61,771 bases of DNA from an uncultured Clostridia bacterium (GTDB lineage: Bacteria; Bacillota_I; Bacilli_A; RF39; UBA660), in contig CAMOMI010000002.1 of assembly GCA_946619755.1 (NCBI GenBank), positions 1 to 61,771 of the forward strand. The letters are read 5' to 3'. A program made the translations under genes and the position numbers. Under the pieces are notes generated by a model that saw nothing but the letters and a program-made list of their open reading frames with translations, ran no database searches and was not told the DNA's origin. Shown piece by piece: positions 26,096 through 26,845 of the stretch (positions are counted from its first letter, which is position 1; the number at the start of each line of letters is the position of its first letter).

Positions 26096-26845
26096 TTACT
26101 GTATGCCTTGAAAATAACTCATTAAACGAATTTTTTCAAGCATATTATCAATTCTATTACAAAATTCCTCATTTTCCTCAGGCGTTTCTGGGCAGAAGAA
26201 TTCTATTTCATTTTTATGATCATTGGATTCATCTATCCAAACTTTATGTATCACTTTTAGTTCCTCCTTTGGTTTGATCGGTTTTAAAATTTGATGTGGG
26301 GTAAATGAATATATTTTACCCTCTAGGTTCTTTTTAAATCTTTTTCTTAAATTAGTTTGTATTCGTGATATTTGAGCTTGACTTCTGTTTAAATTTTCTC
26401 CAATTTCTCTTTGCGATAGACCTTGTTTTTTCAAATCTAAAAATTCTTCTTCTATCTCACTAAGATTTAATCTGTCAAATGCTTGTTGAATATCAATATC
26501 GCGTAACATAATATCTATATGATCTGTATCGTCTGGTATTAAATCTTCAACAGTTAATTCTGATTTATCGTTTGTGCAAACAACTGTGTACATACTAAAA
26601 TCATGATCTTTATGTTTTTTAACAGAACGTAAATAAAAATTTATGTTATTAAATATAGTTTTATATGCAATAGTGCTTAAAGCCCATTTAGGGTTATAGT
26701 GTTGTATTGCTTTCCATAACCCTAATAGAGCAACTTGTTTTATATCCTCGTATTCTTCTGGATAATTTGTACGATATCTATTTGCTATTTTATAAGCAAT
26801 ATTGACATTCTTATTGAACATTTCGTTCATTTCCTCATTTGTCAT
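26096..26845 (-). CDS. Sigma-70 family RNA polymerase sigma factor
   Basis: Region-2-like IKQVALLGLWKAIQHYNP..STIAYKTIFNNINFYLR. Region-4 HTH LKKQGLSQREIGENLNRSQAQISRIQTNLRKRFKK. A C-terminal extension of about 70 aa follows. Confidence 0.75.
   Translation of the reverse strand: MTNEEMNEMFNKNVNIAYKIANRYRTNYPEEYEDIKQVALLGLWKAIQHYNPKWALSTIAYKTIFNNINFYLRSVKKHKDHDFSMYTVVCTNDKSELTVEDLIPDDTDHIDIMLRDIDIQQAFDRLNLSEIEEEFLDLKKQGLSQREIGENLNRSQAQISRIQTNLRKRFKKNLEGKIYSFTPHQILKPIKPKEELKVIHKVWIDESNDHKNEIEFFCPETPEENEEFCNRIDNMLEKIRLMSYFQGIQ

Follow-up and report, generated by a model that had tools for sequence, protein, structure and literature searches.

Where does a bacteriophage sigma factor acquire a C-terminal extension, and what might the extension do for the phage? 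The question is raised by a gene at positions 26096 to 26845 of the 61,771-nucleotide window analysed here (the whole stretch of DNA presented above), which is a near-complete siphophage genome with every gene on the minus strand. The gene encodes a sigma-70 family factor followed by a tail, and the same genome encodes a large RNA polymerase (RNAP) related to YonO of phage SPbeta. Comparison of sequences indicates that the tail is an independent small phage gene that was captured once by fusion, and no elaboration of the sigma factor itself. The explanation that we favour, with moderate confidence, is that a sigma of a phage lineage redirects the host core RNAP and bears this once-captured module, the gene probably giving rise to both the fusion and the free module.

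The sigma factor and its C-terminal module

Profile searches place the open reading frame (ORF) inside the sigma-70 family, as a first-pass annotation of this DNA had proposed. The NCBIfam sigma-70 superfamily model TIGR02937 scored 83.5 bits (cut-off 42.9) over residues 5-174, spanning model positions 2-165 of 165; Pfam Sigma70_r2 (PF04542) scored 32.4 bits (cut-off 24) over residues 9-74, coordinates that a genome search reproduced; and the PHROG family phrog_351, RNA polymerase sigma factor, was matched at E 2.6e-24. The region-2-like and region-4 helix-turn-helix (HTH) peptides quoted by that annotation are all present in the translation. Within region 2, the motif D-I-x-Q-x-A-L-x-G-L-W-K-A is invariant or almost so in the sigma family alignment, and in the recognition helix of region 4 the residues S155, Q156 and S160 are invariant across 37 aligned phage sigmas, long and short. 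The family profile also matches solved sigma chains: residues 84-171 of the query lie on regions 3.2-4.2 of the SigF chain 1l0o_C (E 7.4e-07 for that stretch), and 3mzy_A (a sigma-H factor) and 8vjl_B (a sigma-K factor) were recovered as well. In an AlphaFold2 (AF2) model of the full-length protein, sigma2 and sigma4 have a predicted local distance difference test (pLDDT) of about 88, with helices at 130-174. The protein has both region 2 and region 4 of the sigma-70 family. Beyond residue 180, family models gave weak, chance-level matches only, and the extension of some 70 residues that had been noticed earlier measures about 75 (residues 175-249) past the last family match.

Searched by tblastn against 50,697 phage records, the sigma returned 19 matches, all below 60% identity, and its identity to annotated phage sigma factors was 26-31%. 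It resembles the Firmicute phage sigma-70 factors of phrog_351, found for example in SPO1-like Bacillus and Kayvirus-like Staphylococcus phages, in its two-domain sigma2 and sigma4 body and in its position within the replication and early-middle block of a virulent-type phage. It differs from them by the fused module, by the adjoining YonO-like RNAP and by having no close relative in those records.

A word-index search yielded 118 relatives among 419 candidates, and we aligned the top 27 clusters (E <= 2.7e-60) together with 9 of the other 91. The extension is carried whole or in part by 19 of the 27 closest clusters. Its last 52 residues, which we call the module, are strongly conserved even where the sigma part is only 48-60% identical, and E215, C218, P219, E220, E224, I232, M242 and Y244 do not vary in any of the 18 full-length rows; internal deletions occur in three of the 19 extension-bearing clusters (P0007, P0011 and P0018). 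The 23-residue linker between sigma4 and the module varies in length among lineages, and its frame is open and partly conserved across members 48-98% identical, in an AT-rich genome. The sigma-module frame is intact, free of insertions and deletions, in contigs of four runs from four studies; public runs were examined as assembled contigs, and most of those in which close relatives of the phage occur are metagenomes of the bovine gut. The other 91 relatives, 142-207 aa long, match 42-76% of the query, confined to its sigma part.

Natural alleles also depart from the full-length arrangement. P0020 and P0024 end two residues after the tripeptide RFK, P0021-23 and P0026 have other early ends, the linker of P0016 is frameshifted, and in P0013 a deletion fuses the sigma to the final residues of the downstream ORF 25793..26086; module-less truncated forms were found on contigs of 57-62 kb. 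Short alleles of 175 aa (P0133-P0135) are on 60-kb contigs, and the free module P0130 is likewise encoded on one of about that size. Right after region 4 the gene contains an AAAAAG run, and both alternative frames hit a stop codon at most five codons past it. Allele P0024 (173 aa) matches its 249-aa cluster mate through RFK (residue 171), then has two residues and ends. Its sequence is consistent with a 1-nt slip, by which the gene would be divided into a sigma and a separately translated module.

The module is acidic (12 D+E, 5 K+R, pI 4.5). Modelled alone from 13 sequences, it has a mean pLDDT of 76, rising to about 90 in the helix, with predicted strands at positions 3-7 and 17-21 and a helix at 26-50. 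A Foldseek search with this model gave nothing significant (best E 5.6 in the PDB and 1.2 in BFVD), no family in Pfam or PHROGs matched the module, and the ESM Atlas returned only unnamed 'hypothetical protein' clusters (0.91).

The module exists as a gene of its own. When residues 175-249 were searched exhaustively with HMMER against 1.84 billion representatives, 10 matches came back, among them the fused cluster and five free-standing proteins (50-62 aa) whose start coincides exactly with the M-I-H-K boundary; across phage-like contigs, free-standing module genes encode 48-62 aa. P0127 (63 aa) has only its last 26 residues in common with the module. P0120 and P0123, long tandem-repeat proteins, were discarded as spurious, and the third long match, P0121 (2424 aa), has no matched stretch. 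In DNA, the free module was located in two contexts, a 96.8-kb contig of a Clostridia metagenome-assembled genome (MAG; locus L023) and an 11-kb metagenome contig (L032). At both loci it follows a coiled-coil ORF of about 160 aa amid small phage-type genes (YopX-like, RNA-ligase-like and others), with no sigma gene within 4 kb, and the whole 96.8-kb contig (G001:C27) has no sigma-family match. A tblastn search of the 50,697 phage records with the module gave no match at E <= 1, and IMG/VR scans for a free-standing module, made with alignment A3 and with P0126, found none; the IMG/VR locus L044, considered as a free copy, was rejected when the module hidden Markov model (HMM) did not match it. 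Separately, at 4001-4153 of L023 the module HMM matches in two frames (positions 2-43 and 41-52), and the C-terminus of that copy may, from its sequence, be frameshifted or decaying.

Relatives with a short sigma lack the module: it was found at none of six loci within 3 kb, and in none of five whole records (four of them at least 90% complete), in a search that recovered the positive control in 3/3. We placed the sigmas in a tree of 27 rows, with the labelled sigmas of a genome of the host's genus (G018) and four from a Clostridia MAG; the tree is unrooted and has several long branches. Sigmas that bear the module group together in a single subclade (support 90/97), nested within the clade of phage sigmas, so there was one fusion event.

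Two small ORFs flank the sigma gene, neither with a Pfam match. The upstream one (67 aa, 26857-27060, minus strand) has two Cys pairs and is possibly a zinc ribbon; the downstream one (25793-26086, minus strand) encodes 97 aa.

Translation signals at the junction and the role of the module

We then asked what the junction itself retains. On the coding strand it reads AAGGAGG (26263-26269), 8 nt and an in-frame GTG (V198), the order of a Shine-Dalgarno (SD) sequence and a start codon. This layout is invariant in 5/5 DNA sequences (the window and loci L001-L004, 80-98% identical), in which the adjacent bases vary. Free-standing module genes show the same layout, with the stop codon of the upstream ORF between the SD and the ATG or GTG, and free-standing homologues begin with one or other of these codons at the point equivalent to V198. 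Of 18 family members, 17 have V or M at position 198 (V in 12, M in 5; the single I is in a row with a deletion), so that nearly all have a potential start codon there. In the phage genome GTG supplies 29 of 849 Val codons (3.4%); Lys is encoded by AAG in 15% of cases, and Glu by GAG in 16%. The coding strand contains 48 copies of AGGAGG and the opposite strand one, and a start opening an ORF of at least 30 aa follows 41 of the 48 coding-strand copies. Among the 40 substitutions listed for the contigs of the four runs, none falls in the SD or the GTG; a further 98 differences lie outside that list. Because the SD and the in-frame GTG have been retained, a free 52-aa module is probably made from the nested start alongside the fusion. 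Nested in-frame genes are familiar in phages, where an internal SD and start give a second, shorter product with the same C-terminus; unlike those, the putative internal start here is what is left of a gene that was once independent.

In the mechanism that we propose, the sigma part (residues 1-174: sigma2, a short linker and sigma4) most likely binds the host core RNAP, which would thereby be redirected to phage promoters in the early-to-middle, non-structural half of the genome. By analogy with YonO, the YonO-like RNAP probably serves the long late operon, a block of about 33 kb. In one ancestor of the subclade, the 52-residue acidic module became attached, in frame, to the C-terminal side of sigma4, with a basic linker of some 23 residues between them, and the retained SD and start would let the gene yield two products, the sigma-module fusion and the free module. 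Our preferred guess for the module is an accessory role, in which it would contact the transcription machinery near sigma4 and either aid the phage holoenzyme or hinder the host sigma. A tail that binds the sliding clamp through its conserved C-terminal Y-F was also considered and set aside, a resemblance being all that spoke for it.

Several observations weigh against this scheme, and two that concern a promoter-like motif are added to them below. The free copies of the module are not linked to sigma genes, so that the fusion need not mean a shared function; the extension is missing in 8 of the 27 closest clusters, which makes the module dispensable in nature; and in the full-length AF2 model the module has a pLDDT of 44-72 (predicted template modelling score, pTM, 0.33), with no docking onto the sigma predicted. 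In addition, Pfam Sigma70_r4 by itself stays below its threshold (17.5 against 24.1), and the argument for use of the internal start is drawn entirely from sequence features.

The first three of these points would also be accounted for if the module were a passenger: an unrelated small early or host-takeover gene that lay downstream of the sigma, became joined to it by loss of the sigma stop codon and was tolerated there since the end of sigma4 is exposed, while the free form made from its own start does the real job. The company of the free homologues, which sit among small accessory genes with no sigma nearby, suits such an origin, as do the SD and GTG that the module has kept, the internal deletions in three clusters and the stops in both other frames after the A-run at the end of sigma4. 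On the other side stand a linker of some 23 codons whose frame remains open, and whose sequence is in part retained, among members 48-98% identical in an AT-rich genome, the frame kept in natural contigs of four studies, and the persistence of module-bearing forms as a diversified subclade. We regard a passenger as possible but not probable.

A bolder reading we offer as speculation. The module would be the first representative of a family, not yet described, of small phage proteins whose target is the transcription machinery of the host (RNAP near the flap/sigma4 site, or the host primary sigma), and it would be made both tethered and free. If this were true, one locus would install a phage sigma on the host core and disable or remodel the host holoenzyme, upstream of a third tier formed by the YonO-like RNAP.

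Sigma factors of the extracytoplasmic function (ECF) group offer a close parallel in architecture, since ECF sigmas with C-terminal extensions likewise join an extra C-terminal domain to a sigma2-sigma4 body. According to the accessible part of PMC8999054, some of these extensions arose through translational fusion with a neighbouring gene, and those of ECF41, ECF42 and ECF238 contact sigma2, sigma4 or the linker. A module of this kind could be a built-in regulator, folding onto sigma2/sigma4 or mimicking DNA like region 1.1 of primary sigmas, and so holding the sigma in an inactive state until core RNAP or a signal is encountered, in the manner of ECF41-type C-terminal extensions; its strong acidity and its flexible tether beside the DNA-binding sigma4 would agree with that. 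Yet it has only 52 residues and none of the SnoaL, TPR or Cys-rich domains of ECF extensions, it also occurs as a free gene in genomes or contigs with no linked sigma, and an SD and start of its own have been preserved. The majority of sigmas in the phage clade do without the module, AF2 predicts no confident intramolecular packing, and the sigma is of phage origin and nearer SigH and group 3 sigmas than typed ECF groups. A built-in regulator therefore seems to us unlikely.

Sigma factors of phages have been described before, as have sigmas to which a regulatory tail is fused, and at its core the finding is ordinary. Its novelty lies in the tail, a recently captured independent phage gene, of unknown family, that has kept its own translation signals; in our literature searches we met no phage sigma described as having such a module fused to it. 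Nature supplies the states to be compared (free gene, fusion, frameshift-split alleles and deletion alleles), which makes this a clean system for studying the effect of a fusion at sigma4.

Transcription programme, sporulation and the neighbouring polymerase

The first-pass annotation had noted a phage RNAP in the same genome as the sigma and had taken it for a single-chain enzyme. The polymerase is present; it is a YonO/RdRP-like two-barrel RNAP, and not an enzyme of the T7 type. It contains GADFDGDTV at residues 531-539, with the ADFDGD loop at 532-537, and we take this stretch to resemble the NADFDGD signature of beta-prime. HTH domains lie at both ends, with HTH and sigma-r4-like Pfam matches at residues 959-1001, and from these matches the RNAP may carry its own promoter-recognition domains. 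In nucleotide terms, the HTH matches at the ends of the ORF fall at 16423-16509 and 19050-19140. The protein is 40-57% identical to proteins of FP_oengus, of a human-faecal phage contig and of many actinophages (43.8% to the 'putative RNA polymerase' of FP_oengus), and a PDB sequence search with it gave a chance match only (E 0.76). The DxDGD-type loop and HTH ends are shared with YonO (SPbeta) and with the RdRP-like RNAPs of FP_oengus, of Lactococcus 1706-like phages and of the actinophage supercluster. As far as the available text of 10.1101/842583 goes, the YonO/RdRP-like family is defined there by a DxDGD loop and terminal HTH domains and is linked by HHpred to PF05183; in its main text the word 'sigma' occurs 0 times. 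The accessible portion of PMC5467207 states that YonO transcribes the SPbeta late genes as a single operon and that its promoter requirements and any extra factors are unknown.

The sigma and the RNAP occur together in 5/5 related phage records, two with a long sigma and three with a short one. FP_oengus and MT835495.1 have the RNAP and no sigma gene; their sole matches to sigma models fall below threshold, within the RNAP ORF. Relative to YonO/RdRP-like relatives such as FP_oengus, the sigma has been added in this subclade of rumen and gut phages.

We found a promoter-like motif, (T)TTCGCG-N14-TAT(T/A)AT-(A/G)G, repeated on the coding strand of the phage. The pattern CGCG-N14-TNTWAT has 10 matches where 0.16 are expected, 9 of them on the coding strand, and 11 of the 16 CGCG tetranucleotides in the genome belong to the motif. 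Its copies are intergenic and in many cases immediately follow terminator-like hairpins. The interval from 20.4 to 43.7 kb, in the non-structural half, contains all of them, and the structural half (the block of about 33 kb) has none; with this distribution, the multi-tier transcription programme that the co-resident sigma and RNAP had suggested is plausible. The motif is conserved and strand-specific in 5/5 related phages, with 5-8 coding-strand copies each against 0-1 in backward-read controls, and the host bin has 5 copies in 764,888 bases. Here the two further points against the sigma as reader of these sites enter. The RNAP-bearing relatives without a sigma (2/2) have one copy each, a count that their controls also reach, placed upstream of the exonuclease and RNAP gene pair (in FP_oengus, the cas4-RNAP pair); and we take the -10 part of the motif to resemble the housekeeping-sigma -10 consensus. 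For these two reasons the motif cannot be assigned to the phage sigma. The number of motif copies follows the sigma, although phages that have no sigma possess the motif too. From sequence, it is promoter-like and clade-specific, and any polymerase named as its reader is a candidate.

In the same region, phrog_2152 (function not known) is represented by three early-region paralogues (37291-38205, 39216-40019 and 40221-40979, minus strand), and copies of the CGCG motif precede at least two of the three.

Three modes of transcription are potentially combined in the genome: by the host holoenzyme, by host core carrying the phage sigma, and by a YonO-like RNAP that has HTH domains of its own. Sigma, RNAP and motif together could help to explain how YonO-type enzymes choose promoters and how phage gene expression is timed.

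It had also been suggested that the sigma is related to sporulation sigmas and that, together with SpoVS, it could perturb sporulation of the host. A SpoVS gene is indeed present in the phage (PF04232, 131.3 bits), and phage homologues of SigF/G lower spore yield when expressed in B. subtilis, as the available part of PMC10294663 reports. The host genus, moreover, looks sporulation-capable from its gene content: genomes of the same genus (1.0-1.4 Mb) have 5-12 sigma-family matches and SpoIVA in 12/12, G018 has SigE-, G-, K-, F- and H-like factors, and the host bin has Spo0A and its own SpoVS. By NCBIfam, the sigmas of G018 include an RpoD (577 against a cut-off of 572) and a member of the SigK subfamily (298 against 252), with best matches below cut-off to SigE (309.6), SigG (337.9), SigF-like (163.7) and SigH-like (102) models. 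The region 4.2 helix motif SQAQISRI is common to the phage sigma and a SigG-like protein of the host genus, and the best PDB sequence match of the phage sigma is SigF.

The best-scoring specific NCBIfam models for the phage sigma are nonetheless of sporulation and SigB/F/G types only by low scores: SigB/F/G 58.4 bits, SigK 53.4 (cut-off 252) and 46.8 (299), SigF 45.2 (321), SigG 44.8 (372) and 38.6 (457), SigE 44.5 (339) and SigH 25.3 (295). All sporulation-sigma models scored 25-58 bits against cut-offs of 212-457, short of an equivalog assignment. The closest sigma of the host genus is 28-30% identical, and, in contrast to SigE and SigK, the phage sigma has no pro-sequence. In the tree, 16 phage sigmas, short-sigma relatives among them, form one clade (83/86) outside SigA (100/100), SigE+K (99/96), SigG (97/97) and the one SigF-like row; its neighbour is the SigH pair, at only 90/84 in a tree without a root. 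By these comparisons the phage sigma is a phage-specific lineage and no orthologue of a sporulation sigma. The proposed kinship is not supported, the data give no specific support for sporulation mimicry, and we consider it improbable that the sigma imitates SigF/G/E/K and acts with SpoVS on host sporulation.

The host bin itself, 76% complete, has no SpoIVA, no proper sigma besides that of the phage and no recognisable housekeeping sigma. Since a bin without a housekeeping sigma must be missing genes, its sigma and SpoIVA gaps reflect incompleteness and not biology, and the idea of a sigma-poor or asporogenous host was dropped in view of the same-genus genomes. The only other sigma-like ORF of the bin (L018, at G000:C13:23196-23852, a 376-aa open frame) is highly divergent: it scores 38.9 bits with TIGR02937, matches only SigB/F/G and FliA-type models (43-53 bits) and has the longest branch of the tree. 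As a separate observation, the host genus (G009-G020 and G029), with genomes of 1.0-1.4 Mb, may be a lineage of unusually small spore-formers.

That the sigma or the module is instead a specificity subunit of the phage's own YonO-like RNAP, and not a partner of host core, is very improbable: sigma and RNAP do co-occur in all five related records, and the accessible portion of PMC5467207 leaves room for extra promoter-recognition factors of YonO, but FP_oengus and MT835495.1 manage without a sigma gene, the RNAP's own HTH ends give Pfam region-4 matches and sub-threshold ones to TIGR02937, and YonO, in that same portion, lacks most conserved domains of multisubunit RNAPs, among which we would count those that dock sigma.

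Phage genome, feature coordinates and minor observations

The window is the whole of contig C2 in a bin of 0.83 Mb and 34 contigs. A tape-measure gene runs off both contig ends (1-4384 and 59558-61771), the break lying inside its 195-nt tandem repeats; an exact 50-nt match of the contig ends elsewhere was rejected as proof of a terminal overlap, as it comes from these repeats. In the direction of transcription, tail, fibre and lysis genes (59.5-43.9 kb) are followed by many small genes and by genes for a DNA polymerase-primase, a single-strand annealing protein (SSAP), a helicase, the sigma, a ParB-like protein, nucleotide modification, SpoVS, an exonuclease and the RNAP-like protein of 1002 aa; after a non-coding leader of 0.8 kb at 15617-16422 come genes for packaging, head and tail. 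Related genomes in IMG/VR, 59.6-62.9 kb in length, have a completeness rating of 100%, and a megablast of 21 kb of the window against phage records found no match. The positions of the features discussed are collected in the table.

Table. Coordinates in the window of the sigma gene, its parts and the associated features
Feature	Position	Strand	Residues	Details
Sigma with fused module	26096..26845	-	249 aa	ATG start; stop codon 26096-26098
Sigma region 2	26624..26821	-	9-74	PF04542; AF2 pLDDT ~88; core-binding and -10 recognition domain
Sigma region 4 HTH	26324..26467	-	~127-174	TIGR02937 to last model position; -35 recognition and flap-binding domain
AAAAAG run right after region 4	26330..26335	-	K171-K172	from sequence
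Linker	26255..26323	-	175-197	basic, pI 9.3; AF2 pLDDT 44-52; holds internal SD
Putative internal start GTG	26252..26254	-	V198	conserved in 5/5 DNA sequences
Module	26099..26254	-	198-249	beta-hairpin and 25-residue helix; no known family or fold
YonO/RdRP-like two-barrel RNAP	16423..19431	-	1002 aa	phrog_4291, 1099.9 bits
Phage SpoVS homologue	21425..21757	-		PF04232, 131.3 bits
Promoter-like motif, span	20398..43742	-		(T)TTCGCG-N14-TAT(T/A)AT-(A/G)G; 11 coding-strand copies
Exact motif copies, starts	20398, 39185, 40197, 41470, 41967, 42658, 42927, 43205, 43719	-		
Motif copies with variant -10, CGCG at	31779, 43479	-		

The assignment of the phage to its host is suggested by binning, by base composition (GC about 28% in the host bin and 30.4% in the phage) and by the similarity of the phage SpoVS to a SpoVS on host-bin contig C21 (69.5% identity over 82 residues). 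A 30-nt, 93% match of window 52773-52802 to host contig C13 was put down to chance, the site being an ordinary coding gene with no CRISPR array.

Some further features of the genome deserve mention. The helicase at 27761-28998 (minus strand) seems to be distributed across three overlapping ORFs, one of 54 aa (with GSGKS, which we take to be Walker-A-like), one of 124 aa and one of 282 aa (Helicase_C); the split may reflect a frameshift in the gene, an error of assembly or programmed frameshifting. In the ORF for the head maturation protease (637 aa, phrog_3270, 7200-9113, minus strand), an in-frame AGGAGG is followed after 8 nt by an ATG at nt 616, and initiation there would give a nested product of 428 aa, possibly a nested gene of the scaffold or capsid type. 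The tail fibre ORF of 1851 aa has, in the region 53520-55565, collagen-like 9-nt repeats and a 21-nt periodic array at 55146-55565. Finally, 300 nt of non-coding DNA at 20701-21000 contain several direct copies of a AAAGTGGGAA-like unit and inverted copies of TTCCCA around a GC-rich core; these repeats look iteron-like, as in a replication origin or a ParB-type site.

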